The notes below the pieces were generated by a model. That model searched no databases. It saw only the letters and a program-made list of their open reading frames with translations, and had not been told where the DNA came from. Of a stretch of DNA of 64,000 bases, positions 12,399 through 46,712 are shown one piece after another. A program made the position numbers and the translations under genes. The DNA comes from a virus (Duplodnaviria > Heunggongvirae > Uroviricota > Caudoviricetes), in the IMG/VR virus record IMGVR_UViG_3300025723_001543, positions 93,307-157,306 of that record. One strand, 5' to 3'. Each line of letters begins with the position of its first letter. Within the stretch, counting starts at the first letter, position 1.

Positions 12399-12401
12399 TT
12401 A

Positions 12402-26607: not shown

Positions 26608-28350
26608 ATGCCCGTATCTGCAATATCATTATTGAATAACATTGGATTAGCATCTCCAAAAATTCAAAAAATAATACCCAATTATTCTATTTTATTCTGG
26701 CATCATACAGAAAAATGGAATGATGTAAATTCATCCATCTCATATGGCAATGATCCTAGTAATTATAATGATCCGCTAAGAATTTTTAGACAATATGATA
26801 TTGGTCAGTCAAGTATACCAGATGTGGCTGGGTTTTATTCAAATTCGAAATCTACATTATCTTTTAATTATCTCGTAAGATGTGTATCGAGCAACACTGC
26901 ATGGCCGTCTATTTGTGATATAAAATATGATGCAAATACAAATATGAAAACTACTCAAGCAACTTTATTAGATGTTGGTGGGGCTCATAATTATACATTA
27001 GTTGGTAGAACTTCACCTCCTTTAAAAAATAGTGTTGGCACTCCTTTAATTCCTAATATACCAGTTTCTTATTATAATATTGCACATGCAGGCCATCTTC
27101 ATCAAGTAGAAGGGTTATATAATTTTATAACTTCAGTAAACCCAGGAGCTACTGATTCTATCCTTTTAAATGATCAAGCTGGAAGTCATGTACCAAAATC
27201 TTTTTCAAGTTTTTTTGTTGATCCTATAATAAAAGATCCAAGTTTATTAAATATTCCAGTTACAGCTATTCCAAAAGATATAATAGTTATGTATTATGGT
27301 AATTCTACTCTTTCTCTTGATCATTATGATCCATATGATTTAAGCATGAGCGGAGATAATAATAACATAGACTACTCTGCAAATAGTTATGCTCTTCCTT
27401 TAACATTTGTGCAAACTTCTACATATCTAGAAGCTGGTAAAGTAGGAGCTAAAAATTTAATAATTGCAGCAACAGATTCAAATAGTCTTCTTACTGAACC
27501 AAGAATTCTTGCTGGTTTACAGAGCCAAGTTAATGTTGTTGGTATCAATACCCCAAATACTATAACATTTGTAGCTTCTTCTAATACAGCTGGATGGCAT
27601 GATCATGCTCCTCTTGCAAAACAATCTAGTAAATTAATATCAAGTAATCCTGCAGTAACATATAATGTTATAACTAAACCAAACGGTGGAATTGTATATC
27701 CAAATAATGTTGGAGAAAAATATCCTGATGGACCCGATCCTATAAATCACAAACATAATGTTACATACACATCAGAATTAAAATTAAAATCAGTTAAGTT
27801 AAAAGCATTTTTATCAAAAACTAGTGATGCTCCAATTACAAAAGGATTGATAATTGGATACAGTATTGGCAAATATTCAAAATATTCTGGTATTAGTACA
27901 GATGGAAGTAATAGTTTACCACCGGGTTGGTATTTTTGTGATGGCCAAAATGGTACACCAGATTTAAGAGGAAAATATCCTTTCTTAGATTTTACTCAAG
28001 GAACTGATGATGGTAGCACAATTAATCCTACCAAATCATCAATTTTAATAAAACAAATAAATGTAGAAACTATAAATTGGCAACATGGGCATGTCAGTGG
28101 TACTTCTACATTACCAGGATCAGCCGGAAGTATGGATGTAGGAAGTCATGCATCAAATTATGATCCTATATCAAATCCAAATAATACAACTAGACATAAT
28201 CATCCAGTTTCTGGTCAAGTTACATTTTCACAAGCAAATCCAAGTGGTCTTGGTTCAACTATACAACCAAACGCAATAGTTGGAACTTCTTTTGATTATG
28301 AACCACCAACTGTAGAAATAGCATTCATAATGTATAATGATACAATATAA
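26608..28350 (+). CDS. tail fibre / receptor-binding protein with phage tail-collar domain
   Basis: C-terminal GWYFCDGQNGTPDLRGKYPF matches the tail-collar motif (GWxxCDG...PDLRG+F). Confidence 0.55.
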   Translation: MPVSAISLLNNIGLASPKIQKIIPNYSILFWHHTEKWNDVNSSISYGNDPSNYNDPLRIFRQYDIGQSSIPDVAGFYSNSKSTLSFNYLVRCVSSNTAWPSICDIKYDANTNMKTTQATLLDVGGAHNYTLVGRTSPPLKNSVGTPLIPNIPVSYYNIAHAGHLHQVEGLYNFITSVNPGATDSILLNDQAGSHVPKSFSSFFVDPIIKDPSLLNIPVTAIPKDIIVMYYGNSTLSLDHYDPYDLSMSGDNNNIDYSANSYALPLTFVQTSTYLEAGKVGAKNLIIAATDSNSLLTEPRILAGLQSQVNVVGINTPNTITFVASSNTAGWHDHAPLAKQSSKLISSNPAVTYNVITKPNGGIVYPNNVGEKYPDGPDPINHKHNVTYTSELKLKSVKLKAFLSKTSDAPITKGLIIGYSIGKYSKYSGISTDGSNSLPPGWYFCDGQNGTPDLRGKYPFLDFTQGTDDGSTINPTKSSILIKQINVETINWQHGHVSGTSTLPGSAGSMDVGSHASNYDPISNPNNTTRHNHPVSGQVTFSQANPSGLGSTIQPNAIVGTSFDYEPPTVEIAFIMYNDTI

Positions 28351-28362
28351 TAGGAGTATAAC

Positions 28363-28986
28363 ATGATTACAGTAGATCAAATTAAAGAAATTTGTCCAAA
28401 TGCAAAACAAGATATTGCTGAAGCAATTGCAAATAACTATGACCTTCTTTCTGAATATTATGATATCAATAGTCCATTGAGACTAGCACATTTTCTTGCT
28501 CAATGTGCTCATGAATCTGGTGGGTTTAGATTAATTCAAGAAAATTTAAACTATTCTGCAGAAGGTTTAGATAAAATTTTTCCAAAGTATTTTAAAAATG
28601 CTGGTCGTGATGCAACAGAATATGCTAGAAAACCAGAAAAAATTGCAAATGTTGTTTATGCAAATCGTATGGGTAATGGGAACGAAGAATCTGGTGATGG
28701 ATATCATTTTTGTGGAAGAGGTTTAATCCAATTGACTGGTAAGAATAATTATAAATCACTTGCTGAAACTCTCGAAATGACTATTGATGAAGCAGTAGAA
28801 TATCTTCAGACAGCTGGTGGAGCATTAGAATCTGCAGCATGGTTCTGGGCAAATAATGGGTTGAATGAAATTGCAGATACAGATGATATTCTTCGTATTA
28901 CTAAGAAAGTAAATGGTGGAACTATTGGTCTTGATGATCGTACACACAATGCAAATAAATTTAAAGAAGCTCTTGGTATTGATTAA
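28363..28986 (+). CDS. glycoside hydrolase family 19 (chitinase-like) endolysin
   Basis: LAQCAHESGGF...E...GRGLIQLTGKNNY are GH19 lysozyme catalytic-region signatures. Confidence 0.8.
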   Translation: MITVDQIKEICPNAKQDIAEAIANNYDLLSEYYDINSPLRLAHFLAQCAHESGGFRLIQENLNYSAEGLDKIFPKYFKNAGRDATEYARKPEKIANVVYANRMGNGNEESGDGYHFCGRGLIQLTGKNNYKSLAETLEMTIDEAVEYLQTAGGALESAAWFWANNGLNEIADTDDILRITKKVNGGTIGLDDRTHNANKFKEALGID

Positions 28987-28991
28987 ATAAA

Positions 28992-29354
28992 ATGGGTCAA
29001 TATCCTGTAGCAAGAATAGGTGATACAAGTGACCATGGCGGTGTCATTATATCATCGGGAACAAAGTACAGAGACAGTACTGATGGTAAATTGGTTTCTA
29101 GAGTTGGAGATTATCATAGTTGTCCAATTCCCGGTCATGGTGTCACTGCAATTATTACAGGGTCTCCTAAAGTAAGATCAGAAGGTTCACTTGTTGCAGC
29201 CATAACAAGTGTAACTGGATGTGGAGCAGCAATAAACAGTGGAAGTAAAACTACTACGGTTCCTATGCAAGGTGGTGGAGCAGGAAATGAAAATGCATTT
29301 ATTCTTGATAATAATGAACATGACCAGTTGAATGGTCCATCAGTAATGGGATAA
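28992..29354 (+). CDS. PAAR-repeat spike tip protein (gp5.4-like), free-standing in the fibre module
   Basis: Three PAAR-like repeats: PVARIGDTSDHGGVIISSG / VSRVGDYHSCPIPGHGVTAIITGSPKV / VAAITSVTGCGAAINSGS. Confidence 0.8.
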   Translation: MGQYPVARIGDTSDHGGVIISSGTKYRDSTDGKLVSRVGDYHSCPIPGHGVTAIITGSPKVRSEGSLVAAITSVTGCGAAINSGSKTTTVPMQGGGAGNENAFILDNNEHDQLNGPSVMG

Positions 29355-29358
29355 AATA

Positions 29359-31530
29359 ATGAAAATTTGGGTAGTTGGTGATTATTTAAAATCACAAGAT
29401 TTGAATGCTAACTTTGCAGAACTATCTAGCAATGTAGGTTTTTTGCAAGCAAACGTAGCAACTATTAATGCTGAAATAGGTGATATATACTCAAAATTAA
29501 ATGGTATTACATCTACTTCAAACGTTTCTGGGTTGGATGCTAGATATTTTACTGGCCAATATGTAACAGGATTTAGTCATAGTTCAAACAGTATTAGTTA
29601 TGAAGCTCCATTAATATATAAACAAATACCCGATTCTAGAATCGGCAACACTGTTATTGAAGCAAATACCTATACAATAGGAATAGGTCCAATTCTTCCT
29701 CTTGATAATACTGTAATTTACACAGCATCATTTTGGAGCAGAAAAGTACAAAATGGTAGTGCAAATTCTGGTACATTATATTTTGTTATATCAAATTACG
29801 AGGCAAACTTACAAGTTATACCAGGAGATGGCGGTTATTATCATTATCCAATAGAAAATTTAGTACAAAATACAATATCAACAGCTGATGGTTGGGAAAA
29901 ATATTCTTTTAATGTTGGTCCAAATTCTGGAACAAAAGATCATTCTACAAATGCAAAATTTATAAGTCTTGGGTTTATTGTAAATTATCCAGTCGATGGA
30001 CCAACTGCATATGGAAATGACGTATTTCAATTTACAGGATTTTCATTAAAACCGGCTGGAAATAATATTATTGGTTATACAGGATCGAGTGGAACTGATC
30101 AAGGCGAACCGGGTTATAAAGGTTCGAAAGGATTTACAGGTTCTCGTGGATTAACTGGATATTTTGGTTCTACTGGATTTAAAGGTTCACAAGGAATTAG
30201 TGGCTATCAAGGTAGTGCTGGAGTACAAGGATCAGTTGGTTATATAGGAAGTGCTGGTGTTCAAGGTTCAGTTGGTTATGAAGGTTCGGCTGGTGTAAGA
30301 GGATCGACTGGATATGTTGGATCATTAGGACCGGGAGTACAAGGATCAGTTGGTTATCTTGGTTCTACAGGGTTTAAAGGGTCTGTTGGATCAGTTGGTT
30401 ATAAAGGTTCAGTCGGTGATCCCGGTGGTCCAGTTGGTTATCAAGGTTCGGCTGGTTATCAGGGGAGTTTGGGATATCAAGGATCGGCTGGTGTCCAAGG
30501 ATCAACTGGATATGTTGGATCATTAGGACCGGGAGTACAAGGATCAGTTGGATTTAAAGGGTCGGCTGGTTATCAAGGTTCTGCAGGATTTCGTGGTTCT
30601 GCTGGATACAGAGGATCGGTTGGGTATCAAAGTTCTGTTGGATATCTTGGTTCTACAGGATATCTTGGTTCAGTAGGGTATCTTGGATCGGTAGGTTATA
30701 CAGGTTCTATTGGTGATCAAGGACCACCGGGTGGAAGCACAGGTTATACAGGCTCAGTTGGATTTGTCGGATCATTAGGATATGATGGCTCACTTGGATA
30801 TACAGGTTCTAGCGGATATACAGGATCAGTAGGGTTTATCGGATCATTAGGATATGATGGCTCACTTGGATATACAGGTTCAAGAGGTGGCGGATATTTT
30901 GGTTCTACCGGATATAGCGGCTCTATTGGATTTCAAGGATCAGCTGGTTATTTTGGTTCATTTGGTTATAAAGGAAGTGTTGGTTATTCTGGATCATATG
31001 GTTATCTTGGCTCAGTAGGATATACAGGTTCTGTTGGTGCAAGAGGCGTTGATGGTTATAAAGGTTCTATAGGTATAATGGGTTCTATAGGATATCAAGG
31101 TTCAGCTGGTACTTCATATCCTCCTGCGATTGCATTTGCTGCAAAATCTGACATAGGTTCTTATGAACAAGATTATTGGATATTTGATATAGTTGTATTA
31201 AATAAAGGTAATGGGTTTGATTATTTAAGTGGTAAATTTACTGCACCAAAAACAGGATATTATTATATACATCTTTCTGGAGATGTAGATTATTATGCTG
31301 ATGGTATGATAAGAATTTATTTTGCAGTTAATGATGTAATTTATACGACTGCAAAATATATCAGTACAAAATATTCTACGCAAAATGGATGGCAAAATTT
31401 TAATATGTCAACTGTCATGTATCTACATGAAGGCGATTATATTATGCCTTACATAGAAATAGCTGGTGGTCAAAATATAGATAGTAACCCAGAAAACACT
31501 TCTTTTGATGGTTTTTTTATAGGAGAATAA
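29359..31530 (+). CDS. collagen-like fibre protein with C-terminal C1q/TNF-like globular domain (candidate whisker/fibritin analog)
   Basis: About 110 GXY triplets (res ~235-565). The C-terminus fits the C1q signature F-x5-N-x4-F-x6-F-x5-G-x-Y-x-(I)-x-(L): FDIVVLNKGNGFDYLSGKFTAPKTGYYYIHL. The gene lies two genes upstream of gp13, where T4 has wac. Confidence 0.75.
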   Translation: MKIWVVGDYLKSQDLNANFAELSSNVGFLQANVATINAEIGDIYSKLNGITSTSNVSGLDARYFTGQYVTGFSHSSNSISYEAPLIYKQIPDSRIGNTVIEANTYTIGIGPILPLDNTVIYTASFWSRKVQNGSANSGTLYFVISNYEANLQVIPGDGGYYHYPIENLVQNTISTADGWEKYSFNVGPNSGTKDHSTNAKFISLGFIVNYPVDGPTAYGNDVFQFTGFSLKPAGNNIIGYTGSSGTDQGEPGYKGSKGFTGSRGLTGYFGSTGFKGSQGISGYQGSAGVQGSVGYIGSAGVQGSVGYEGSAGVRGSTGYVGSLGPGVQGSVGYLGSTGFKGSVGSVGYKGSVGDPGGPVGYQGSAGYQGSLGYQGSAGVQGSTGYVGSLGPGVQGSVGFKGSAGYQGSAGFRGSAGYRGSVGYQSSVGYLGSTGYLGSVGYLGSVGYTGSIGDQGPPGGSTGYTGSVGFVGSLGYDGSLGYTGSSGYTGSVGFIGSLGYDGSLGYTGSRGGGYFGSTGYSGSIGFQGSAGYFGSFGYKGSVGYSGSYGYLGSVGYTGSVGARGVDGYKGSIGIMGSIGYQGSAGTSYPPAIAFAAKSDIGSYEQDYWIFDIVVLNKGNGFDYLSGKFTAPKTGYYYIHLSGDVDYYADGMIRIYFAVNDVIYTTAKYISTKYSTQNGWQNFNMSTVMYLHEGDYIMPYIEIAGGQNIDSNPENTSFDGFFIGE

Positions 31531-31531
31531 A

Positions 31532-31834
31532 ATGCAGTATACAGTAACTTATACTGAAGCGGAAGACATGGCAATGCAAAGTGTTACTGTTTCAGTAGAT
31601 TCTTGGATACAAAATATTTGTCATCAAAGATCAAAACAGGCTATGGATACTATAATCAATAATTCAATAAACAAATTTTTGGATGCTGGTATTCCTATTC
31701 CTTCTACAAGAGAAGAAATAGTTTTAACTGTTTTTGCAAATGGTTGGGAAAAAACTGGTCTTACAAAAAATACTGAATTATTAGCAAACACATATTACAT
31801 GACGCCACCACCAAGAAAAGTAGCAAACACATAA
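31532..31834 (+). CDS. hypothetical protein
   Basis: ORF, 100 aa. Confidence 0.3.
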   Translation: MQYTVTYTEAEDMAMQSVTVSVDSWIQNICHQRSKQAMDTIINNSINKFLDAGIPIPSTREEIVLTVFANGWEKTGLTKNTELLANTYYMTPPPRKVANT

Positions 31835-31857
31835 ATACTTAAAAGAGGTATTTTAAA

Positions 31858-32598
31858 ATGGCAACATTACAAACCAGAACTGATTTCAAAGAATATTGTC
31901 TCAGAAGACTTGGTAAACCTGTAATTGATATTAATGTTGATGACGATCAGGTCGATGATCGTGTTGATGACGCATTGAAATTTTATTGGGATTATCATTT
32001 TGATGGTACTGAAAAAATTTATTATAAACATGTTTTTACTCCTCAAGATATATCAAATGGTTATATTCCACTACCAGATAATATTATTGGAGCTGTAAAC
32101 ATATTTGATATTGGAGATTATGTTGCTACAAATAATATTTTTAATATTAGATACCAGATTGCATTGAATGATCTTTACACATTAACATATCAATCTATGG
32201 TTCCGTATTATATGGCATTTCAACAACTACAACTTTTAGAACAATTGCTCGTTGGCAAACAACCAATTCGTTATAATAGAAAAACAAATAAATTGTATAT
32301 AGACGTTGATTGGGCTAAAATTTATCCCGGTCAATATCTTGTTGTAGAAGCATATCAGGTCGTCGATCCGAATGAGTATTCATCTGTATGGAATGATAGA
32401 TGGTTACAAAAATATGCATCAGAATTAATTAAAAGACAATGGGGTAGCAATCTTACTAAATTTGTTGGAATGCAGTTGCCCGGTGGTATTCAGTTTAATG
32501 GTGAAAAAATTTATAATGATGCAGATGCTGCAGTTGAAAAATTAGAAAAAGAAGTAATAGATGGTTACAGTTTGCCCGTTGTAGATATGATAGGTTGA
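31858..32598 (+). CDS. 13: neck protein gp13
   Basis: TDFKEYCLRRLGKPVIDINVDDDQVDDRVDDALKFYWDYHFDG and C-terminal NDRWLQKYASELIKRQWG...MQLPGGIQFNGEKI match T4 gp13 ([61 protein letters not shown]...MMLPGGVTIDGQRL). Confidence 0.85.
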   Translation: MATLQTRTDFKEYCLRRLGKPVIDINVDDDQVDDRVDDALKFYWDYHFDGTEKIYYKHVFTPQDISNGYIPLPDNIIGAVNIFDIGDYVATNNIFNIRYQIALNDLYTLTYQSMVPYYMAFQQLQLLEQLLVGKQPIRYNRKTNKLYIDVDWAKIYPGQYLVVEAYQVVDPNEYSSVWNDRWLQKYASELIKRQWGSNLTKFVGMQLPGGIQFNGEKIYNDADAAVEKLEKEVIDGYSLPVVDMIG

Positions 32599-32649
32599 AA
32601 TATACTTTTTATAAATACTCTTGTATAACAATTTACAGGAGTATTAAAA

Positions 32650-33324
32650 ATGGAAAAATATGGGTTTGTTTATATCTGGTTTGATAAAAAACACAGCAGA
32701 TTTTATATAGGTTCACATTGGGGGACAGAAGATGACGGGTATATTTGTAGTTCAGCTTGGATGCTAAAAGCTTATAAAATAAGACCAGATGATTTTAAAA
32801 GAAAAATTATTAAAAAAATATTTTCAAGTAGAAAAGAACTGATGGAAGAAGAATTTCGTTATTTGAGTATGATAAAAGAATATGAGTTAAAAACTAGATA
32901 TTATAATTTAAATATTAAAGCTACTGGTCATTGGTCAACATACCCAGAAAAAGTAAAAACAATATCTGAAAAAATATCTATTCGTACCAAAGAAGCTATG
33001 GCTCGTCCTGAAATTCGTGAGAATTATCTTATTGGATTGGCAACAAGAGATAACAAATCATCTGATCCAAATGTTTGTGAAAAACGTCGTGTATCTATGA
33101 TTGGAAAAAATACAGGTAAAGATAATTCAAAAGCTAGAAGAATGGCTACAGAAGCCAATACGGGCAGACCTTTATCAGATACACACAAAGAAAAAATTAA
33201 AAGTACTACACATTTTAAAACAATAAATAGTAGTAAAATAAAATGTGTTCATTGTGATTTTGAAGGAAACATGGGCAATATTGCTAGATATCACAACGAT
33301 AAATGTAACAGAAAGATACTTTAA
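32650..33324 (+). CDS. GIY-YIG homing endonuclease (Seg/I-TevI-like) with NUMOD-like repeats and C-terminal zinc finger
   Basis: GFVYIWFDKKHSRFYIGS (GIY...YIG). C-terminal CVHCDFEGNMGNIARYHNDKC. Free-standing between gp13 and gp14. Confidence 0.75.
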   Translation: MEKYGFVYIWFDKKHSRFYIGSHWGTEDDGYICSSAWMLKAYKIRPDDFKRKIIKKIFSSRKELMEEEFRYLSMIKEYELKTRYYNLNIKATGHWSTYPEKVKTISEKISIRTKEAMARPEIRENYLIGLATRDNKSSDPNVCEKRRVSMIGKNTGKDNSKARRMATEANTGRPLSDTHKEKIKSTTHFKTINSSKIKCVHCDFEGNMGNIARYHNDKCNRKIL

Positions 33325-33884
33325 TGTTACCATTTAATTTATTCATACAATTAGATGAAGATCAGCAACAAGCATTAAAATATGCTGCTAGAGCCCATGC
33401 TGGGCAGACAAGATCAGATGGTTCTGATTATATTCGTCATCCTGAAAGAGTTGCTAAGAGTGTTATGCAGTTTAAAAAATCACATAATATTGATGCTCTT
33501 ATGAGTGCTGCGTATCTTCATGATACTATTGAAGATACTAATACTACTAAAGATGATTTAGAAAAATTGTTTGGTAGTCTAGTTGCTTCTCTTGTACAAG
33601 AGTTGACTACTGATAAAGACGATCTTGAAAAAGCTGGTGGTAAGACAGAATATTTATCTCAGAAGATGAAAAAAATGTCTAGCTATGCTTTGGTCATCAA
33701 GTTGGCAGATAGATTGGATAATGTACAAGATATCAAGTCAGCAAAGAATGCTGCATGGCGTGAGAAATATAAAAAAGAAACTCTTAGAATAATGAACTAT
33801 ATAGAGAAGGAAAGAGTTTTATCAAAGACTCATATGAAAATTATTACAGCTATACGCCATAAGCTATCGGAGTTGGATCACTAA
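33324..33884 (+). CDS. small alarmone hydrolase (RelA/SpoT-type HD-domain (p)ppGpp hydrolase, Mesh1-like)
   Basis: HAGQTRSDGSDYIRHPERVA...AAYLHDTIEDTNTTKDDLEKLFGSLVASLVQELT aligns with the SpoT hydrolase core (HEGQ.R.SGEPYI.HP..VA...AALLHDVIEDT....E....FG..VA.LV.GVT). 186 aa, no synthetase domain. Confidence 0.7.
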   Translation: MLPFNLFIQLDEDQQQALKYAARAHAGQTRSDGSDYIRHPERVAKSVMQFKKSHNIDALMSAAYLHDTIEDTNTTKDDLEKLFGSLVASLVQELTTDKDDLEKAGGKTEYLSQKMKKMSSYALVIKLADRLDNVQDIKSAKNAAWREKYKKETLRIMNYIEKERVLSKTHMKIITAIRHKLSELDH

Positions 33885-33885
33885 A

Positions 33886-35778
33886 ATGTTAATGTTTAAA
33901 CAGTTTATCAAAGAAAATGCTATTACAGGTTATAATACCCTTCTAAACGAAGAATTGAACGATGCTCAAAAAAAAGTTGTTGATTCATGGGGTGAAAACA
34001 CAAAGGCTAAGAAAATTTCTAAAGATGCAATTCCAGAAGGACAAGATAGAACATATATCCCTCTAGAACATCCAGATGACAATAAGCCAGTAGAACCTCA
34101 TCCAGATGTTAAAGCGCATCTGGAAAAGCATGGCTATAAGATAACTGATTATAAAGGTAATAAAGCAATTGAGCCTAAGTATAACAGAGAAATTCGTATT
34201 GGTAAAGCATTAGCTGCAACAGGTGCTTCAAAAGAATTAGTTAGCACATTTAACAACGATCCTAAAAGGGCTGCTTCCAATTCTGGTAAACTAGGCGTAG
34301 TTATTTCTCGTCACCCACATGATGTTGCTGGAATGTCTACTGACAGAGGTTGGCGTTCATGTATGAGTATGAGTACAACAGGAGCTAAAAAAGGTATTGG
34401 TGCTGGTAGTAATAGTCATTATCTAAAGCATGATGTTCAACAAGGAACACACGTTGCTTATCTTGTACACGAACATGACAAAGAAGCTAAACAACCTCTT
34501 GCAAGAATAGCATTGAAACCATTTCAATCGGAAGATAAAAAAGATACCATTCTCAGACCAGAAGAATCACAATATGGAACTTCTGATCATGCATTTGGAC
34601 ATACAGTAAAAAAATGGGCTGAAACAAATTTTCCTGTTAAAGATGATAAAATATACAGAAAAAATAAAAAATTATATAATGATGATCAAAAAGATGTGAT
34701 TGCCAGTCCTAATGCTTCATTAAAAAGTAAAGACCCTAATACCAGAGCCGCAGCTTTTGATAATAGTAATGTGTCACATGAACATATTACAAAAGGATTA
34801 AATGATGAACAAGCTCAAGTACAACTTGCTGCTATTCAACATCCAAATGCAACGGCAGAGCATATCACAAAAGCTTTAGGAATTGATCATATTGGAATTA
34901 GAGCAGCTGCGATTCAACATCCTAATGCAACAGCAGAACATATTACACATGTATTGCATAATGATGGTGATGATTATGTAAGAAAAGCTGCATTAAAAAA
35001 TAAAAATGCAACAGCAGAACATCTTACCCATGTATTAAATAATAAATGGGGTGAAGATAGAAATGTAAGAATTGCTGCATTACAACATCCAAAATTACCA
35101 GCAAAAGAAATTACTAAAGTTTTAAATGGTACTAGTGGTCCTGAAAAAGCATTTGCAGTATCTAATCCTAATGCAACACCAGATCATATTAATAAAGCTT
35201 TGGATGCTCACAATCATTCTGATATCAGACAAGCTGCTATTCAAAATCCTCATGTTAAATTATCATCAGAACATATAACAAAAGCATTAAATGATGTAGA
35301 CACAAGAATAAGAGGAATTGCTGTAAGAAGACCAGAAGCAACAACAGAGCATATTACAAAAGCATTAAATGATGATAAATCATTTGTCAGATCACATGCT
35401 ATTCAAAATCCTAAAGCAACTGCAGAACATATTTCTAAAGTATTAAATGATCCAAATGAAGAAGATGGTATAAAAAGATCAGCGGTAGCTCATCCAAATG
35501 CAACATCTGCACATATTTCTAAAGCATTAAATGATCCAGATGAGGCTGTAAGAAGAACAGCAATATCTAATCCAAATGCAAATGCAGAACATATTTCTAA
35601 AGCATTAAATGATCCAGATGACGTTGTAAGAAGAAAAGCAGTAAATCATCCCAATGCAACTGAGGAACATGCTTTAAAAGCATCAACAGATAAATCTTCA
35701 ATGTTCGTTCGTAATGATGCAGAACAACGTCTTGCACAGTTTAGAGTAGCAAATAAAAGAAAAAGTAAAGAGCTATAA
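33886..35778 (+). CDS. protein with unknown N-terminal domain (~300 aa) plus ~12 tandem 27-aa HEAT/PBS-lyase/LRV-like alpha repeats
   Basis: Repeats of consensus NPNATAEHI(T/S)KALNDPD..VRR.AI (e.g. HPNATSAHISKALNDPDEAVRRTAIS; NPNANAEHISKALNDPDDVVRRKAVN). Translationally coupled to the SAH gene. Confidence 0.6.
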   Translation: MLMFKQFIKENAITGYNTLLNEELNDAQKKVVDSWGENTKAKKISKDAIPEGQDRTYIPLEHPDDNKPVEPHPDVKAHLEKHGYKITDYKGNKAIEPKYNREIRIGKALAATGASKELVSTFNNDPKRAASNSGKLGVVISRHPHDVAGMSTDRGWRSCMSMSTTGAKKGIGAGSNSHYLKHDVQQGTHVAYLVHEHDKEAKQPLARIALKPFQSEDKKDTILRPEESQYGTSDHAFGHTVKKWAETNFPVKDDKIYRKNKKLYNDDQKDVIASPNASLKSKDPNTRAAAFDNSNVSHEHITKGLNDEQAQVQLAAIQHPNATAEHITKALGIDHIGIRAAAIQHPNATAEHITHVLHNDGDDYVRKAALKNKNATAEHLTHVLNNKWGEDRNVRIAALQHPKLPAKEITKVLNGTSGPEKAFAVSNPNATPDHINKALDAHNHSDIRQAAIQNPHVKLSSEHITKALNDVDTRIRGIAVRRPEATTEHITKALNDDKSFVRSHAIQNPKATAEHISKVLNDPNEEDGIKRSAVAHPNATSAHISKALNDPDEAVRRTAISNPNANAEHISKALNDPDDVVRRKAVNHPNATEEHALKASTDKSSMFVRNDAEQRLAQFRVANKRKSKEL

Positions 35779-35781
35779 ATA
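35774..35781 (+). promoter_or_regulatory. T4-type late promoter TATAAATA upstream of gp14
   Basis: Exact octamer 28 nt upstream of ATG 35809. Confidence 0.5.
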
Positions 35782-35808
35782 GTATATAAAAACAAAAGAA
35801 AGCTATAA

Positions 35809-36537
35809 ATGGCCACATCATTATATTTTAACAATTTTACTTCTGCAAGTGAACAGAACCTAATAGAGAATCTTGTCATAGAGTCTATAAAGGCTTATGG
35901 TATTAATACTTATTATGTTCCCAGAACAATTATCACCAGAGATAATGCTTTCAGAGAACAATTTGTTACTGAATATGGTGAAGGTGTAAATGTCGAAATG
36001 TATTTAAAGAACGTCAACGGATTTGCTGGTGATGGAGAATTTCTTTCTAAATTTGGTGTAGAAGTAAGAGATCAATTAACATTTTCTGTTGCCTTAAGAA
36101 TTTTTGAAAATGAAGTTGGTTCTATCTTAAGAAGAGATAGACCATTAGAAGGTGATCTTATTTGGTTTCCGTTGAACCAACATCTTTATCATATTAAATT
36201 TGTTAACAAGACACCTATTTTTTATCAAATGGGCGCAATACAAATGTATGATGTTGTATGTGAATTGTTTGAATATTCTAATGAAGTATTCAATACAGGA
36301 TTTGATACTATAGACAACATGTATAATGCTCTTTTAACAACTACTGATCCTTATGTTATTACTACAGAAAATGGTATTCCTTTATTTGATGAGAATGGAA
36401 TTGAATTGATAGAAGAACAATACGATCTTAATATGATTGACACAAATTCACAAAATGATTATTTTGAATCTCAAGGAATTGAATTTTTAGATTTCAGTGC
36501 AAAAGACCCATTTAGTGAATCAGATAGGAGAGCATAA
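35809..36537 (+). CDS. 14: neck protein gp14-like
   Basis: 242 aa between gp13 and gp15 in conserved order. Size similar to T4 gp14. Confidence 0.5.
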   Translation: MATSLYFNNFTSASEQNLIENLVIESIKAYGINTYYVPRTIITRDNAFREQFVTEYGEGVNVEMYLKNVNGFAGDGEFLSKFGVEVRDQLTFSVALRIFENEVGSILRRDRPLEGDLIWFPLNQHLYHIKFVNKTPIFYQMGAIQMYDVVCELFEYSNEVFNTGFDTIDNMYNALLTTTDPYVITTENGIPLFDENGIELIEEQYDLNMIDTNSQNDYFESQGIEFLDFSAKDPFSESDRRA

Positions 36538-37349
36538 TGATTGGTGGCTCTCCTTTTTACAATTCTCTTTTTAAAAAATATGTGGTAATATTTGGAACTC
36601 TTTTCAATAATATTATGATAGAACGTGTTAGCGATTCTGGTGTTTTAGAACAAACTTTTAAGGTTCCTATTGCTTATGGGCCAAGAGAAAAATTTCTTGC
36701 TCGTGTGGAAGAAAATCCAGATGCATCTGCAGTAACTGCTATAAGATTACCAAGAATGTCTTTTGAGATATCTGGTGTTACTTATGACCCAAGCAGAAAA
36801 TTACAAACAGTAGGCAAGATTGGTTCAAAAAGAGAATTAAATGGAAAAAATACTTATAAAAAAGTATTTAATCCAGTACCTTATAATCTTGGATTTAAAT
36901 TAGATATTATGGTAAAGACAATGGAAGACGGTTTAAGAATCGTAGAGCAAATACTTCCTTATTTTACACCAGAATGGACTGTAAGCGCAAGACTTTTACC
37001 AGATTATGATAATATAACAGATATTCCATTGATTATGGATGGTATGGACATCAGCGATTCATATGAAAGCGATTTTGTTGCTAGAAGAGCACTCATATTT
37101 ACATTAAATTTTACTATGAAATGTTATTTTTATGGTCCTGTAACTGAATCTAAACTTATTAAAATTTCTGATGTTAGAATATATCCTAATCTTACTGCAA
37201 ATAGTGATGTTGCTGATATAAATGTTAGACCGGGACTAACTGCTAATGGAATGCCAACTTCTGATCCATCTTTATCTATACCATTATCTCAAATAGAAGA
37301 GACAGATACATATGGATTTATTGTAACTGTGAGTGAAACATATGGTTAA
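36537..37349 (+). CDS. 15: tail sheath stabiliser / tail completion protein gp15
   Basis: SPFYNSLFKKYVVIFGTLFNNIMIERV and RIVEQILPYFTPEW match T4 gp15 (MFGYFYNSSFRRYATLMGDLFSNIQIKRQ; QIVEQILPYFQPHF). Confidence 0.8.
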   Translation: MIGGSPFYNSLFKKYVVIFGTLFNNIMIERVSDSGVLEQTFKVPIAYGPREKFLARVEENPDASAVTAIRLPRMSFEISGVTYDPSRKLQTVGKIGSKRELNGKNTYKKVFNPVPYNLGFKLDIMVKTMEDGLRIVEQILPYFTPEWTVSARLLPDYDNITDIPLIMDGMDISDSYESDFVARRALIFTLNFTMKCYFYGPVTESKLIKISDVRIYPNLTANSDVADINVRPGLTANGMPTSDPSLSIPLSQIEETDTYGFIVTVSETYG

Positions 37350-37731
37350 TAAAGATGTAATTTCAAATTCATTAGGAATACCACCCATTCCTTCTCCACC
37401 AAATCCTGTATTCTTGCCGTCAAAAGAAAAGAATGACTATGAATATGCTCGTCAGAACATGTATGATATCATAGAAAAAGGTCAATCTGCATTAGAAGAT
37501 ATTGTAGATATTGCTAGACAATCAGAATCTCCTAGAGCATATGAAGTAGTCACCAATTTAATTAAAACTTTGGCTGAAACAAATAAAGACCTTATGGAAT
37601 TAGCAAAAAAGAACAAAGAAATTAATAAAGCTGATAGTAGCAATGAAGGTAATAAAACAGTCAACAACAATTTATTTGTTGGTTCTTCTTCTGAGTTATT
37701 GAAGATGATTAGGTCTGATTATAATGAATAG
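37333..37731 (+). CDS. 16: terminase small subunit gp16
   Basis: DYEYARQNMYDIIEKGQSALEDIVDIARQSESPRAYEVVTNLIKTLAETNKDLMEL aligns with T4 gp16 ([56 protein letters not shown]). Confidence 0.8.
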   Translation: MKHMVNKDVISNSLGIPPIPSPPNPVFLPSKEKNDYEYARQNMYDIIEKGQSALEDIVDIARQSESPRAYEVVTNLIKTLAETNKDLMELAKKNKEINKADSSNEGNKTVNNNLFVGSSSELLKMIRSDYNE

Positions 37732-38608
37732 TACAAATGAAGTATATCTTGGTAATATAAACTTAAAGCGTAAAGGTGTCCAACTAGAATTTTCAAAAGA
37801 ACAAATTTTAGAATATATAAAGTGCGCCAATGATGTAAATTATTTTTGTGAGAATTATGTTAAGATCGTGAGTATTGATAAAGGACTCGTTTCTTTTAGT
37901 CCTTATCAATATCAAAAAAGAATGTTTAAAGTATTTGATGACAACCGTTTTACAATATGTAAAATGCCTCGTCAGGTGGGGAAAACAACAGGTGTTGTTG
38001 GGTATATGCTTCATAAAATTCTTTTCAATGAAAATTATAATATTGCAGTTTTGGCTAATAAACAAATTCAATCAAAAGAAATTCTTTCTCGAATTCAACT
38101 TGCATATGAATGGTTGCCCAAATGGATGCAGCAAGGCATTATTCAATGGAATAGAGGAAATATCGAATTGGAAAATGGTTCTAAAATACTTGCAGCTGCC
38201 ACTTCATCATCTGCTATTCGTGGTCAATCTTATAATCTAATTTATCTTGATGAGTTTGCATTCGTTCCCAGAAATATTCAAGACACATTTTTTGCTTCAG
38301 TATTCCCAACAATTTCTTCTGGTAACACTTCTAAATTATTAATAACTTCCACACCAAATGGTATGAATTTATTTTATAAAATTTGGATGGACTCTGTTAA
38401 TAGTGAAAATTCTTATGCCCGTGTTGATGTTCATTGGTCAGATGTTCCCGGCAGAGACGAAGCATGGAAAGTAGAAACTATTCGAAATACTTCTGTTGAT
38501 CAATTTCGTCAAGAGTTTGAATGTTTAGACGGTGATACAGAAATTAATATTTTAATAGATAACATTTCCAAAAAAGTTGCAATCAAAGAAATTATAAATA
38601 TAATATGA
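37724..38608 (+). CDS. 17: terminase large subunit gp17, N-terminal (ATPase) fragment fused to a 28-aa N-intein
   Basis: Walker A RQVGKTT (T4 SRQLGKTT). Extein ends ...SVDQFRQEFE (T4 ...LAQFRQEHTAAFE), then CLDGDTEINILIDNISKKVAIKEIINII-stop, i.e. intein block A (C-L-x-x-D-T-x-I). Confidence 0.85.
   Translation: MNSTNEVYLGNINLKRKGVQLEFSKEQILEYIKCANDVNYFCENYVKIVSIDKGLVSFSPYQYQKRMFKVFDDNRFTICKMPRQVGKTTGVVGYMLHKILFNENYNIAVLANKQIQSKEILSRIQLAYEWLPKWMQQGIIQWNRGNIELENGSKILAAATSSSAIRGQSYNLIYLDEFAFVPRNIQDTFFASVFPTISSGNTSKLLITSTPNGMNLFYKIWMDSVNSENSYARVDVHWSDVPGRDEAWKVETIRNTSVDQFRQEFECLDGDTEINILIDNISKKVAIKEIINII
38522..38605 (+). other. N-terminal half of atypically split intein (Int-N, 28 codons starting with Cys)
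   Basis: TGT at 38522 lies in frame with the terminase ATPase fragment. CLDGDTEI motif; stop codon 38606-38608. Confidence 0.75.
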
Positions 38609-38624
38609 ATGCAATTTTATAGGA

Positions 38625-39194
38625 TTGAATTATATGCATTATAGAAAAATTTGGGAAAATACACACGGAAAAATACCAACTGATGAAAATGGGTTTTCTT
38701 ATGAAATACATCATATAGATGGTAATCATAAAAATAATAACATAGAAAATTTACAATTAGTTACAATAAGAGAACATTTCGATATTCATTTACAGCAAGA
38801 AGATTGGTTTGCAGCTGCATTAATTGCTAAAAGAATTGGATTTGGTCCAGATTATTCTTCAAATTTACAAAAAGGAAAGAAAAGACCAAATATTGGTGGA
38901 GTTTCAAAAGGAACAGTTCCGTGGAATAAAGGGAAAAAATATTCTTTTTCTGAAGAAGTTAGAAACAACAGAAAAGGTAAAAGATTTGGAAAAGTTAAAA
39001 TTACTGATCATGAATGTTGTTTAATTTTGAAAAAATATAATAATAAAATTCCTTTAAATGGTGTAGGTGATATATCAAAAAATGGAAGAAAAATTACTTA
39101 TGAAAGAGTTTTTTCTAAAGAATTTCATAAAGAATATAACGTAACTGAATCACAATTATATAATATAATTACAGGAAAACGAAATGTTCTTTAA
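38625..39194 (+). CDS. free-standing HNH homing endonuclease between the terminase halves (likely ATG start at 38634; track start 38625 is TTG)
   Basis: EIHHIDGNHKNNNIENLQLVTIREHFDIH is an HNH motif. Its frame differs from both terminase fragments, and its 3' end overlaps the C-intein ORF start by 11 nt. Confidence 0.8.
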   Translation: MNYMHYRKIWENTHGKIPTDENGFSYEIHHIDGNHKNNNIENLQLVTIREHFDIHLQQEDWFAAALIAKRIGFGPDYSSNLQKGKKRPNIGGVSKGTVPWNKGKKYSFSEEVRNNRKGKRFGKVKITDHECCLILKKYNNKIPLNGVGDISKNGRKITYERVFSKEFHKEYNVTESQLYNIITGKRNVL

Positions 39195-39507
39195 AAATAA
39201 TAATACATTAATAGAAACATCTGAAGGGTATTTACCTTTTAAAGGTGTACAAAAAATTAAAAAAAATGGTCAAATTGAAATTCATTTAGAAAACGGCAGT
39301 CAATTAAAATGTTCGCTTACCCACCGAATCATGACTGTAGATGGTTGGAAGAAATCTATTGATCTTAAGAACGACGATATTATCATATGTAAAAACGAAA
39401 AATCTAAGATATTTTTTCTAGATTACAAAGAGGGAGAATTTGAATATTTTGATATTGTTGGAGTAGAAAATGAACAGTTTTATGCAAATGATATTTTATC
39501 ACATAAT
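39184..39507 (+). other. C-terminal half of atypically split intein (Int-C, 108 codons; ends ...ILSHN, +1 Cys at 39508)
   Basis: Own ATG with AGGA Shine-Dalgarno 7 nt upstream. Terminal HN | C splice junction. Confidence 0.75.
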
Positions 39508-40317
39508 TGCGAATTCTTAGGTTCTACTAACACTCTTATCCATCCTTCAGTTCTTTCTAGATTAGCATACATGAGACCAATAGACAATCCTCATGAAGTA
39601 AAAATATATAAACATCCAATCAAAGATCATATTTATTCCATAACAGTAGATGTTAGCGAAGGTTTAGGGATGGATTCATCTGCACTCGTAGTAATCGATT
39701 GTTCTACTGTTCCATATGAAGTCGTTGCTACATTTAAAGATTCAAATATATCACAATTAATGTTACCAACATTACTTTCTAATATAGGAAAATATTATAA
39801 CGAAGCAGCTATATTGGTTGAAATAAATATAGGATCACAAGTAGTAAATATTCTACATCAAGATTTAGAATATGAAAATATTGTTATGACAAAAATGAGT
39901 GGTAAAAAAGGCACAGCAATAGGTATATCAGGTAATCAAAATAGATTAGGTATAAAAACAACTCAAGTTACTAAAAGAATAGGATGCGCTAACTTAAAAA
40001 CTCTTATCGAATCTGATAAAATAATTTTAAATGATTATGATATTATAAATGAACTGTCCACATATGCTGTTGATAGAAATACTTACAATGCAGAAGAAGG
40101 ACATCATGACGATTTGGTAATGTGCATGGTTCTTTTTGCTTGGATGGCAAGTCAAAATTATTTTAAAGATGTTTCAAATACAGATATCCGTAGACGAATT
40201 GAAGAAGAAGTTGAAGAAGATTTCACACCTTTTGGTATTATACATGATGGCAGGGAAGAAGAATTTAACGATAAAGTAATGAGTGAAAACGAGTTTGAAA
40301 AATTTTTACTAAATTGA
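39184..40317 (+). CDS. 17: 108-aa C-intein fused to terminase large subunit C-terminal (nuclease) fragment
   Basis: ORF opens MFFKNNN...EYFDIVGVENEQFYANDILSHN followed by CEFLGSTNTLIHP. Intein blocks F/G end in HN with +1 Cys. The extein then continues in register with T4 gp17 (FEGTSGTLI...), with HDDLVMCMVLFAWM matching T4 HDDLVMSLVIFGWL. Confidence 0.85.
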   Translation: MFFKNNNTLIETSEGYLPFKGVQKIKKNGQIEIHLENGSQLKCSLTHRIMTVDGWKKSIDLKNDDIIICKNEKSKIFFLDYKEGEFEYFDIVGVENEQFYANDILSHNCEFLGSTNTLIHPSVLSRLAYMRPIDNPHEVKIYKHPIKDHIYSITVDVSEGLGMDSSALVVIDCSTVPYEVVATFKDSNISQLMLPTLLSNIGKYYNEAAILVEINIGSQVVNILHQDLEYENIVMTKMSGKKGTAIGISGNQNRLGIKTTQVTKRIGCANLKTLIESDKIILNDYDIINELSTYAVDRNTYNAEEGHHDDLVMCMVLFAWMASQNYFKDVSNTDIRRRIEEEVEEDFTPFGIIHDGREEEFNDKVMSENEFEKFLLN

Positions 40318-40322
40318 GTTTT

Positions 40323-40330
40323 TATAAATA
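40323..40330 (+). promoter_or_regulatory. T4-type late promoter TATAAATA upstream of sheath gene
   Basis: Exact octamer 47 nt upstream of ATG 40377. Confidence 0.45.
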
Positions 40331-40376
40331 ATCATACGAAATAATATGTGATTTTTATTATAAAAAGGAGAAAACA

Positions 40377-44986: not shown

Positions 44987-46711
44987 ATGGAAAAGTCAGT
45001 ACGTAACACCATCAACTCCATTATGGAAGTGGCACAGCCTTTGTCACAGGGCGAAATTAATTTTAAGGCGCTTCATGGCGAACCAAAGCCAACAAATAGA
45101 GATATGATTCCTGGGATTACTGACCAAGATTTTATTTTTAATGGTAATCCTCGTAAAGATAATAAACTTCCTGCATCATATCAGAATGGTGAAAATGATG
45201 CATCAAAAGATGTTTATGATAAAAATTTAAAGGTAACACAAAATTATTATCCCCAAAAAGAAGTTGGGGTTAAAGAAGAAGTTGAATCTGTTGAAGAAGC
45301 TATGAAGGGTGAAGATGAATATAATGCTCGTTATGGCGCTGGTGGAAAGAAGCGTTCATCTGATGAAGTAGAAAATTCTTATATGAAGAACAAGGAAAAA
45401 GTTCTTAATAAGTATAATAATAAAAGTAGTGAAAAAGAAGTTTCTGAGCCAGTCAAAGAAGAAATGAAGGGTGAAACTGAATACAATGCTCGTTATGGTA
45501 AAGGCGGAAAAAAGAAGCCAAATCCAGATAAAACAAAAGAAAAAACTGATTGGAAAGAAATTCTTACAAGAAAGAAAGAAGTTTCTGAAGAAGTTGAATC
45601 TATTGAAGAAGAAATATACTCAACTATTAAAACATTCGTTATCGGTGAGTATGGCATTTCAGTACAAGAATCATCAGATATTTATTGTGTAATTAATCCA
45701 GTAAATGAAGATGAGTATTTTACAGAAGATTATAACGATGCGTGTGATACTGCTAAAGCAATTTTAAGAACTATTGTCAAGGAAGCTATCGAAGAAGAAG
45801 AAGCAATTGCTTTAGCTGAAAAGAGAATTGACGTAGAAAAAGCTATGTATGCTCGTTATGTTCCTGGAAAGTTTACAAAAAAGCCAAATAAGTTAAAAGG
45901 AAACCAGAAGGTTCTTGACAAGAATCATAATGGTCATCTTGATAAGCAAGACTTTGAAATGCTTCGTAAGGAAGAAGCAGAAGAGCTTGAAGAAAAGAAT
46001 TGGATTGCTGGTGCTATCAAACATCCTGGTGCTCTAAAGGCTGCAGCAAAACGTGCTGGCGAAACCACATCAGAATATGAGCAAGAACATAAGCATGATT
46101 CTGGTAAAGCTGGAAAACGTGCACGTCTTGCACTTACTTTGAATAAAATGCATGAAAACTATGATGATTCAAAAGAAGAAGTCAGTATGGTTACAACAGA
46201 ACTTAAGTCAATGATCCACGATGCTACAGAACTTCTTAGCAAGATGCCATCACAGATGCATGTAGAACCATGGGTTCAAGCAAAGGTAGCAATGGCAAAA
46301 GCTTCTATCTGTAGTATTCATGATTACATAGTATATGGCAATGTAAATGAAGAAGTAGAACCACTTGATGAAATTTCTCGTGATCTTGCTTCTAGATATA
46401 TTCAAAAAGCTAAAACAAGTACTCGTGGTGCATATTATGGTGATGATGTAAAAACTTCTGGAAAAAGACAAAAAGGAATTGATCTTGCTCTTCTTAAGAA
46501 GTGGGGTGATAAGAAATTTGGTTATCCTGAGCCAAAGGTAAAGGCTACTGAAGAAGTAGTAAATCATGTTGAAGAAGGCGCAGAAGTTGATCGTATGGAA
46601 AGACACATTGAAACAAGTGAAATTAAATCTGGAAAATCGCCAAAGGTAGCAAAACAGATTGCATGGGCTACTATCAATAAACGTGGTATGTTGAAGAAGG
46701 ACGGGAAGTAA
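44987..46711 (+). CDS. large highly charged (K/E-rich) protein with internal repeats; candidate prohead core / internal head protein
   Basis: Repeated modules (E)MKGE.EYNARYG.GGKK x2. Shares a KKEVSEEV segment with the next ORF. Located between portal and protease gp21 (T4 has gp67/gp68 there). Confidence 0.3.
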   Translation: MEKSVRNTINSIMEVAQPLSQGEINFKALHGEPKPTNRDMIPGITDQDFIFNGNPRKDNKLPASYQNGENDASKDVYDKNLKVTQNYYPQKEVGVKEEVESVEEAMKGEDEYNARYGAGGKKRSSDEVENSYMKNKEKVLNKYNNKSSEKEVSEPVKEEMKGETEYNARYGKGGKKKPNPDKTKEKTDWKEILTRKKEVSEEVESIEEEIYSTIKTFVIGEYGISVQESSDIYCVINPVNEDEYFTEDYNDACDTAKAILRTIVKEAIEEEEAIALAEKRIDVEKAMYARYVPGKFTKKPNKLKGNQKVLDKNHNGHLDKQDFEMLRKEEAEELEEKNWIAGAIKHPGALKAAAKRAGETTSEYEQEHKHDSGKAGKRARLALTLNKMHENYDDSKEEVSMVTTELKSMIHDATELLSKMPSQMHVEPWVQAKVAMAKASICSIHDYIVYGNVNEEVEPLDEISRDLASRYIQKAKTSTRGAYYGDDVKTSGKRQKGIDLALLKKWGDKKFGYPEPKVKATEEVVNHVEEGAEVDRMERHIETSEIKSGKSPKVAKQIAWATINKRGMLKKDGK

Positions 46712-46712
46712 T

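Follow-up and report, generated by a model that had tools for sequence, protein, structure and literature searches.

Phages are known to counter toxSAS/CapRel-type defences with alarmone hydrolases, which have been treated as enzymes made after infection has started. Those of phages PVP-SE1 and SSU5, both small alarmone hydrolases (SAHs), neutralise all toxSAS toxins tested (PMC7229694). Another described system is that of phage T4, in which the capsid-targeting sequence (CTS) MKTYQEFIAE attaches internal proteins to the scaffold core and is then cut off in a single cleavage, this leader being the sole feature common to the diverse internal anti-defence proteins of T-even phages (PMC8442874; PMC3012670). 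The T4 protease gp21 cleaves on the C-terminal side of the Glu of I/L-x-E, examples being ITE-6 and LTE-619 in Alt (PMC5694885). Here, we analysed a 64,000-nucleotide stretch of phage DNA (hereafter the window; positions 93,307 to 157,306 of the IMG/VR record IMGVR_UViG_3300025723_001543) and focused on a block of three genes located between the neck genes gp13 and gp14, which encode a GIY-YIG-like endonuclease (gene 1), a predicted SAH (gene 2) and a repeat protein (gene 3). The last two begin with leaders resembling the T4 CTS, and we propose, with evenly balanced confidence in this reading as a whole, that the SAH and the repeat protein may be late-made, head-packaged, protease-trimmed and injected effectors.

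The window is part of an AT-rich uncultured T4-like myovirus, in which tail-fibre genes, gp13, the three open reading frames (ORFs), gp14, gp15, gp16, gp17, gp18, gp19, gp20, the prohead genes and gp23 follow one another. Megablast of the region against GenBank phages returned a single match, a 147-nt endonuclease patch in Sinorhizobium phage phiM12, and no close cultured relative, while gp15 shares at most 45-48% identity with the proteins of Stenotrophomonas phage DLP6, cyanophages and phiM12. An earlier sequence-only reading of this stretch had placed three ORFs, coupled by stop/start contacts at 33324 and 33884/33886, within a gene order (13-14-15) that T4-like phages keep together. Coordinates, junctions and motifs were all found to be real, the coupling consisting of a TAATG overlap of genes 1 and 2 (33322-33326) and a TAA-A-ATG arrangement of genes 2 and 3 (33882-33888). 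In DLP6 and phiM12, the nearest cultured relatives, gp13-gp14-gp15-gp16-gp17 are indeed contiguous, so that the block represents an insertion relative to that arrangement. Its features are as follows.

31858-32598, + strand: gp13-like neck protein (head-tail adaptor), matching PHROG211 at 1.4e-39; upstream boundary of the insertion
32610-32617, + strand: TATAAATA box, resembling a T4-type late promoter, 40 nt upstream of the endonuclease ATG
32650-33324, + strand: homing-endonuclease-like gene 1, 224 aa, matching PHROG314 at 8e-14
33324-33884, + strand: gene 2, 186 aa, predicted Mesh1-like SAH with an HD_4 domain
33324-33359, + strand: N-terminal leader of the SAH, MLPFNLFIQLDE, capsid-targeting-like and ending in L-x-E
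33886-35778, + strand: repeat-protein gene 3, 630 aa, an N-terminal domain (N-domain) followed by a HEAT/LRV array
33886-33915, + strand: leader of the repeat protein, MLMFKQFIKE, with the pattern and the Glu-10 of the T4 CTS
33952-34731, + strand: conserved alpha/beta N-domain of gene 3, with its set of invariant residues
34735-35685, + strand: twelve HEAT/LRV-like helix-pair repeats of 26-29 aa each (Pfam HEAT and LRV; AlphaFold2)
35774-35781, + strand: TATAAATA box overlapping the repeat-protein stop codon, 35 nt upstream of gp14
35809-36537, + strand: gp14 neck protein, T4_neck-protein at 1.1e-29; downstream boundary of the insertion

The leaders of genes 2 and 3, MLPFNLFIQLDE and MLMFKQFIKE, share the form M-x-x-F-x-x-F-I-x-(x-x-)E over 10-12 residues. 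Within the 64-kb window, the pattern ^M.{1,3}[FYW]..[FYW][ILVM] fits 6 of the 510 possible ATG starts, and the two true gene starts among these six are those of the adjacent SAH and repeat-protein genes. Over 95 loci, the strict form of the leader ending in Glu heads 37 ORFs, all co-oriented with the family gene, and occurs at none of 609 opposite-strand ORFs and at 2 of 5,027 internal Met positions. With a position-specific scoring matrix (PSSM) derived from the leaders of the family, the T4 CTS ranks within the top 0.04%, and the SAH leader has a tail probability of 0.0017. An origin of the leader in N-terminal AT-rich codon bias was considered and rejected, other real genes and opposite-strand ORFs being devoid of it.

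The strict leaders comprise 24 distinct sequences, many of which stand on unrelated neighbouring genes in runs of 3-5, some encoding DUF6267 proteins. Among the related loci (designated by L numbers), the form M-x-x-F-x-x-[FY]-[IL]-x-E heads 3-5 consecutive, mutually unrelated genes in L022 (5886-9697), L026 (6468-10502), L014 (8581-12077), L066 (4096-5993), L113 and L121, and several of the genes in these runs encode DUF6267 proteins. These runs are often headed by a gene of the N-domain family together with a single TATAAATA box, which lies 33-39 nt upstream of the runs of leader genes in L022, L026, L017 and L090. They look like islands of internal-protein genes.

Among SAHs, the leader was found on 19 of the 31 closest relatives in IMG/VR (e.g. 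MKTFKKYIAED, MKTFKKYIAEDTLNESAL) versus 1 of 49 distant SAHs. It is kept within the clade of the window. The distant SAHs begin directly with the HD helix, and two that have no leader, those of Vibrio phage pv27 and DLP6, are surrounded by small genes of early type. The leader of the SAH is an add-on, and it occurs on exactly the SAH sub-clade found in late/structural contexts. This distribution bears on an alternative in which the SAH and the repeat protein are late cytoplasmic accessory proteins that remain unpackaged, the leader serving another purpose; it could for instance form an amphipathic helix that aids expression, stability or localisation, or that binds a partner. We regard it as somewhat unlikely. 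It draws on the wide occurrence of phage SAHs (412 phage records by tblastn), which stand among early genes in other phages, on the shortness of the leader pattern and on the presence of some leader genes in replication modules. Against it, beyond the restriction to the late-context sub-clade, speaks the agreement of the leader in length, spacing and terminal Glu with the CTS defined by experiment in T4. The leader also heads runs of unrelated genes downstream of late promoters, and it is borne by a homologue that is an abundant virion protein. The latter, ORF132 of the Ralstonia jumbo phage RsoM2USA, matches the N-domain of gene 3 (42% identity, 1e-30), starts with MKTFKQFL and is among the ten most abundant virion bands in published liquid chromatography-tandem mass spectrometry data.

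Late-promoter-like boxes and a T4-type prohead module occur in the same window. The whole-window count of TATAAATA is not above chance (16 versus 11.2 expected), and eight copies on the + strand stand just upstream of late-gene starts. The late promoter that had been noticed at 35774 was recovered as the box at 35774-35781, a second one preceding the block at 32610-32617. Genes 2 and 3 are co-oriented in the neck operon, downstream of the TATAAATA at 32610, and would be read with the late neck genes. Scans for sigma-70 promoters and terminators gave results at or below chance. Besides a portal gene, the prohead module comprises the following features.

48309-48974, + strand: prohead protease, T4-type gp21-like, Peptidase_S77 at 1.9e-32
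49020-50066: scaffold, T4_CASP at 2.6e-60
50114-51466: major capsid protein, Gp23 at 4e-143

The propeptide of T4 gp23 is cut at ...FLTE/AEIGG. At the equivalent place, the gp23 of the window has ...SLLTE58/TGINAAG, which would fit the same protease specificity.

Under the packaging reading, the leader would dock the SAH and the repeat protein onto the prohead scaffolding core, where the gp21-type protease of the window would cut after I/L-x-E, and both mature proteins would remain inside the head until they pass into the next host along with the DNA. Once injected, the SAH would at once remove 3'-pyrophosphorylated nucleotides, (p)ppGpp and (p)ppApp. Alternatively, it could act on the pyrophosphate put on tRNA CCA ends by toxSAS/CapRel-type defences. 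The repeat protein would bind, and possibly modify, a host target through its variable solenoid. Gene content, homology, catalytic motifs, insertion history and leader distribution are established directly, and from these we infer packaging, cleavage, injection, substrate and target. The earlier proposal that the hydrolase simply blunts the stringent response during infection is revised here, since the late operon position and the capsid-targeting-like leader point to delivery by the virion. The same logic was applied by Iyer et al. to Alt-family enzymes encoded beside baseplate genes (PMC5512222).

The products of genes 2 and 3 would be, by analogy, counterparts of T4 IPI* and Alt. With IPI/IPII/IPIII and Alt they share the 10-residue leader with its M-x-x-[FY]-x-x-F-I-x-E spacing and its cut-site-like I/L-x-E, a diversity of cargo with only the leader in common, and the same type of protease and scaffold; their expression may likewise be late. 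Unlike the T4 internal proteins, which are small basic proteins or an ADP-ribosyltransferase, the cargo, whose packaging and cleavage are predicted, consists here of an HD hydrolase and a 70-kDa putative enzyme-plus-solenoid protein, in a phage only distantly related to T4.

Several points weigh against this proposal. The SAH leader has Leu at position 10 and Glu at position 12, and its PSSM score is only modestly unusual. Gene 3 could start at Met1 or at Met3, its homologue in L003 being called from the second Met. Leader-bearing members of the family are also found in replication modules (L090, L091), though L090 has a late-promoter box. About one third of the family sequences match the leader pattern, a shortfall partly explained by truncated or mis-started calls. 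The PSSM and the regular expressions were designed after the motif had been seen, and we know of no report of a CTS shared by T4 and T4-like phages this far removed from it. As to virions, the evidence is limited to a single distant jumbo-phage homologue, assigned from a gel band without head localisation. Lastly, packaging in this phage and in its clade is deduced from sequence, a point that equally serves the cytoplasmic alternative.

The product of gene 2 is very probably a member of the Mesh1-like SAH family, as judged from its sequence. HD_4 matches residues 17-156 at 1.6e-18 (67.4 bits against a cut-off of 27.2 bits), and the hydrolase part of the NCBIfam model spoT_relA (TIGR00691) matches at 6e-26. 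Its best solved relatives are human MESH1 (PDB 3nr1, 7.5e-19) and Drosophila MESH1 (2.2e-18), followed by the Rel/SpoT hydrolase domains and the bacterial SAHs (~1e-12). The motifs GQTR30, RH39P, H66D67..E70D71, KLAD129 and N133 were recognised, and R30, H39, H66-D67, E70-D71, D129 and N133 coincide with their counterparts in MESH1 3nr1 and do not vary across a six-sequence alignment. The protein is single-domain, Pfam matching only HD_4 and HD, with no synthetase or regulatory domain. The sequence-only description of a stand-alone RelA/SpoT HD domain lacking a synthetase, with conserved HD motifs, is thereby supported at both levels, by the HD_4 and human MESH1 matches and by the MESH1 alignment. 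Within the clade, the SAH is 84-95% identical, against 75-80% for gp13, gp14 and gp15.

The enzyme class itself is not new, given the 412 phage SAH records and the activity of the PVP-SE1 and SSU5 enzymes. With SSU5 PaSpo, PVP-SE1 PbcSpo and metazoan Mesh1, the SAH of the window shares a single HD_4 domain of ~180 aa, the lack of a synthetase and all metal-binding and catalytic motifs, and the two phage enzymes are likewise encoded by large lytic phages. It differs from them by its position in a late neck operon and by its extra CTS-like leader of 12-13 residues, which is absent from distant phage SAHs. A precedent for capsid-associated phage delivery of an alarmone-metabolising enzyme is provided by the MuF polymorphic toxins of temperate phages, which carry (p)ppApp-synthetase domains (PMC12226406; PMC5512222). 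Those are synthetases fused to the MuF head domain, whereas the protein described here is a predicted hydrolase with a short, putatively removable leader.

The close relationship to metazoan MESH1 opens another reading of the substrate, in which the SAH would act on 2'/3'-phosphorylated cofactors (NADPH/NADP+ to NADH/NAD+, CoA to dephospho-CoA) rather than on alarmones, and would help to maintain NAD or CoA pools, for instance in the face of defences that deplete NAD. Metazoan MESH1 (7.5e-19) outranks the bacterial SAHs (~1e-12) as a solved relative and has been reported to act as a phosphatase on NADPH and as a 3'-phosphatase on CoA. In L102 and L103, moreover, cytidylyltransferase-like (NMNAT/PPAT-type) domains are joined to SAH domains that share 60-63% identity with that of the window, though these fusions may mean another role in those phages. 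We nonetheless consider a cofactor substrate unlikely: every residue used in (p)ppGpp hydrolysis is conserved, phage SAHs of two subfamilies neutralise toxSAS toxins, and Mesh1 also hydrolyses (p)ppGpp and (p)ppApp (PMC7644958).

As a separate observation, C-terminal or internal SAH domains, 55-63% identical, are part of larger proteins (491-1,197 aa) in L102 (2090-4552), L103 (3413-4888), L108 (1814-5407) and L101 (3-2981). The N-terminal domains of these fusions are cytidylyltransferase-like, with a HIGH motif, in L102 and L103, and of the DUF5824 type in L108.

Gene 3 had been described as a domain of ~300 aa of unknown nature followed by a regular HEAT/LRV-like array, a plan borne out by Pfam and AlphaFold2 as ~280 aa plus 12 units. 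Pfam scores reach 48.7 bits against 23.5 for HEAT and 30.1 against 21.6 for LRV, and AlphaFold2 models 12 helix pairs (24 helices) over residues 284-600 with a predicted local distance difference test (pLDDT) above 90. The proposed array of twelve 27-aa repeats stood as to the number of helix pairs modelled, with 11 clear units and one degenerate unit, and lengths of 26-29 aa. The last 3.3 repeat units also form a tandem repeat at the DNA level (35407-35670, period 78). The N-terminal 280 residues have no match in Pfam (even at E<=10), PHROG, NCBIfam or PDB sequences. They are predicted to adopt an alpha/beta fold (pLDDT 84.7), for which Foldseek against the PDB gave nothing significant. A GNAT-like fold is weakly suggested, with no match to an acetyltransferase profile or to an acetyl-CoA-binding motif: the N-domain is Pfam-free at E<=10, and no family member has such a Pfam domain. 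A PcfJ-like identity was also considered, from weak BFVD matches (E at least 0.09), and could not be substantiated.

The N-domain defines a family of 2,315 representatives at 50% clustering (1,765 at E<=1e-10), with ~260 conserved aa placed nearly always at the N-terminus of the protein and the invariants GMST.RGW.SC, Y192, D198, P204, R207 and Y230-G231. Elsewhere among phages it is combined with DUF4116, LRV, HEAT, LRR or WG repeats, or stands alone. Among clade members, total length varies from 568 to 630 aa, and the N-domain is 83-91% identical, compared with 69-80% for gp13, gp14, gp15 and gp18 and 57-70% for the HEAT part. This contrast fits a conserved catalytic or core module combined with a diversifying binding module, and the N-domain is probably enzymatic, as far as its sequence indicates.

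An invariant set of Cys, Arg, Asp and Tyr typical of an active site argues against the idea that the repeat protein is, instead of an effector, a structural or assembly part of the neck or head (decoration, chaperone or scaffold). So does the exchange of its C-terminal module among five repeat types, as does its unfixed position (13/14, 14/15, 16/17, uvsY, regA/DNA polymerase, gp41 helicase) and its absence from L097, DLP6 and phiM12. This idea, which we hold to be very unlikely, can invoke the proximity of the gene to gp13, gp14, gp15, gp17 or gp18 in about 20 of 79 IMG/VR loci (single-sequence search), its co-orientation with late genes and the presence of the RsoM2USA homologue in the virion.

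Among the closest known relatives of gene 3 are RsoM2USA ORF132 and the paralogue pairs of the jumbo phages of Erwinia, Dickeya, Pseudomonas (Lu11) and Agrobacterium (Atu_ph07). They share the N-domain at 30-42% identity (E down to 1e-30; Foldseek on BFVD at 1e-19) and a start of the MKTFKQFL type. They differ by other C-terminal regions, by their jumbo-phage genomes and by frequent tandem paralogues. A HEAT-only protein of 254 aa (HEAT at 6.6e-26; L006/L011, 586-1350) was also observed ahead of the N-domain/HEAT gene of the gp16-gp17 lineage.

More broadly, and with confidence somewhat short of even, the form M-[KL]-x-F-[KS]-x-[FY]-[IL]-x-E may be functionally CTS-like and, in environmental T4-like and jumbo phages, label a large number of head-packaged, injected effectors that have so far gone unrecognised. 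This set would include the first virion-delivered alarmone hydrolase, together with a family of ~2,300 clusters combining a GNAT-like, Cys-containing enzyme domain with interchangeable target-binding solenoids. SAHs, HEAT repeats, free-standing endonucleases and the CTS principle were already known; the CTS-like leader on an alarmone hydrolase, the leader-bearing SAH sub-clade and the very large unannotated effector-like family are new. If the packaging reading is true, a capsid-loaded hydrolase would act before the defence shuts down translation and before any phage gene is expressed, which would change the view of timing in the alarmone/toxSAS arms race, and the injected protein set of uncultured phages would become readable from their genomes. 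The leader would offer a simple sequence handle for finding the injected proteins of uncultured T4-like phages, and it points to the N-domain plus swappable-repeat family as a biochemical priority.

The comparison of related loci resolves the history of the block. L001 and L002 carry the same trio of endonuclease, SAH and repeat protein, while L003, L004, L005, L010 and L096 have gp13, the SAH, the repeat protein and gp14 in this order, without the endonuclease. In these five endonuclease-free loci the two cargo proteins are 57-88% identical, and the SAH ATG lies 4-7 nt past the gp13 stop (the gp13 orthologues of L003 and L004 matching Pfam Phage_T4_gp13). Alignment of the window with the L003 and L004 junctions shows ~725 extra bp (32599-33323), made up of the TATAAATA box and the endonuclease ORF. 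The endonuclease is also missing from L097, a 202-kb contig with gp13, the SAH and gp14 and no repeat protein, and is thus a free-standing gene present or absent between collinear relatives. The endonuclease is a recent and independent insertion, and did not bring in the SAH and repeat-protein genes. We are highly confident in a history in which the SAH and repeat-protein pair is older and the endonuclease was inserted separately and later. The endonuclease gene, with its own late promoter, would have entered the 4-nt spacer between gp13 and the SAH gene.

This history departs from the sequence-only reading, which saw in the endonuclease a plausible vehicle for a three-gene unit. That the three genes form one mobile cassette, with the SAH and the repeat protein as cargo of the endonuclease, appears extremely improbable in view of the five loci that have the pair alone with the gp13 stop 4-7 nt from the SAH ATG, of L097 with its solitary SAH, and of an endonuclease family of at least 1,868 members, which in L033 and L034, the two other loci of the comparison where a member was seen, has no SAH beside it. 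The tight coupling of the three genes in the window, the recurrence of the trio in L001 and L002 and the frequency of homing endonuclease genes at nearby junctions of related phages are what speaks for a cassette. Nor do the genes behave as a unit at the gp13-gp14 junction, relatives showing them elsewhere and unlinked, which holds for the trio and for the SAH-repeat pair. The adjacency of the latter is confined to one clade (L001-L005, L010 and L096). At other junctions (gp14/gp15, gp16/gp17, before uvsY, beside regA/DNA polymerase, after the gp41 helicase), the repeat protein has no SAH, and it is absent from L097, DLP6 and phiM12. A fixed functional pairing of the SAH and the repeat protein was likewise set aside, given this single-clade adjacency and the solitary SAH of L097. 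It follows from the corrected inference that a homing endonuclease beside accessory genes need not be their carrier.

No paralogue of any of the three genes was found elsewhere in the window, PADLOC gave no match for the three proteins, and an Rfam scan of 28000-41000 found no RNA family. Further small inserts were observed in the neck/terminase module of close relatives: a 210-aa ORF that separates the repeat-protein gene from gp14 in L004 (9754-10386), a leader-bearing 127-aa ORF (MKTFKNFISE) between gp16 and gp17 in the same locus (12299-12682), and another at position 6473 of L097. Junctions in this module are thus generally plastic.

Gene 1 had been called a Seg-like GIY-YIG endonuclease, an assignment weakly supported by motif spacing, by the Glu and Asn positions and by PHROG314 'homing endonuclease' (8e-14), the statistics being poor. 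Pfam GIY-YIG (PF01541) reaches E=1 and 10.2 bits, under its 22.6-bit cut-off, the profile matches I-TevI (PDB 1ln0) at E=0.18 and hhalign gives a probability of 9.7%. No Pfam, NCBIfam or PDB match was obtained for the protein, phmmer against the PDB being empty. Owing to these poor statistics, we use the term GIY-YIG-like, gene 1 not being a proven member of the family. G5-x-x-Y8 and Y19-I-G21 show the 11-residue Tyr-Tyr spacing of I-TevI, and Y8, Y19-I-G, E68 and N86 align with I-TevI Tyr6, Tyr17-V-G, Glu75 and Asn90, the position of the catalytic Arg being ambiguous (R45 or R51).

The gene 1 family counts at least 1,868 metagenomic homologues of ~225 aa, many of them on contigs of 100-290 kb, and none has a precomputed Pfam domain. 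Its alignment invariants are G5, Y8, Y19, G21, R45, R51, E68 and Y84-Y85-N86, completed by a basic middle region and an invariant C-x2-C...H-x3-C tail (C199, C202, H215, C219). The first 147 nt of the gene are 76% identical at the DNA level to a homing endonuclease gene of phiM12. Like the free-standing I-TevI/Seg endonucleases, gene 1 is intergenic, present or absent in close relatives, provided with its own late promoter box, and carries G-x-x-Y...Y-I-G at 11-residue spacing. Its conserved Glu and Asn align with those of I-TevI, and its C-terminal half is basic and contains a Cys/His cluster. Unlike these endonucleases, it falls under every curated GIY-YIG threshold and belongs to an unannotated family.

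Another endonuclease gene interrupts the large terminase (37724-40317), which is a fractured gene. Its N-terminal part (gp17N) ends with ...QEFE and a 28-aa tail, CLDGDTEINIL..., and is followed by an HNH_3 endonuclease gene (38625-39194), free-standing and preceded by a TATAAATA of its own at 38593. The C-terminal part (gp17C) begins with ~108 extra residues ending in ...SHN before CEFLGS. L003 and L097 share the split, and L004 and L010 have a single 535-aa gp17 with ...QEFECEFLGS.... The arrangement has the appearance of a split intein, with a homing endonuclease gene between its halves.

Upstream of the neck genes, 29359-31530 encodes a tail-fibre-like protein of 723 aa that ends in a C1q domain and has a long collagen triple-helix region (G-x-x), where the GC content rises to 47%. 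Two large, highly charged Lys/Glu-rich ORFs of 574 and 445 aa, Pfam-free and leader-free, separate the portal gene from that of the prohead protease (44987-48050), and the first of them holds a duplicated ...MKGE.EYNARYG.GGKK... segment; both may be prohead core proteins.

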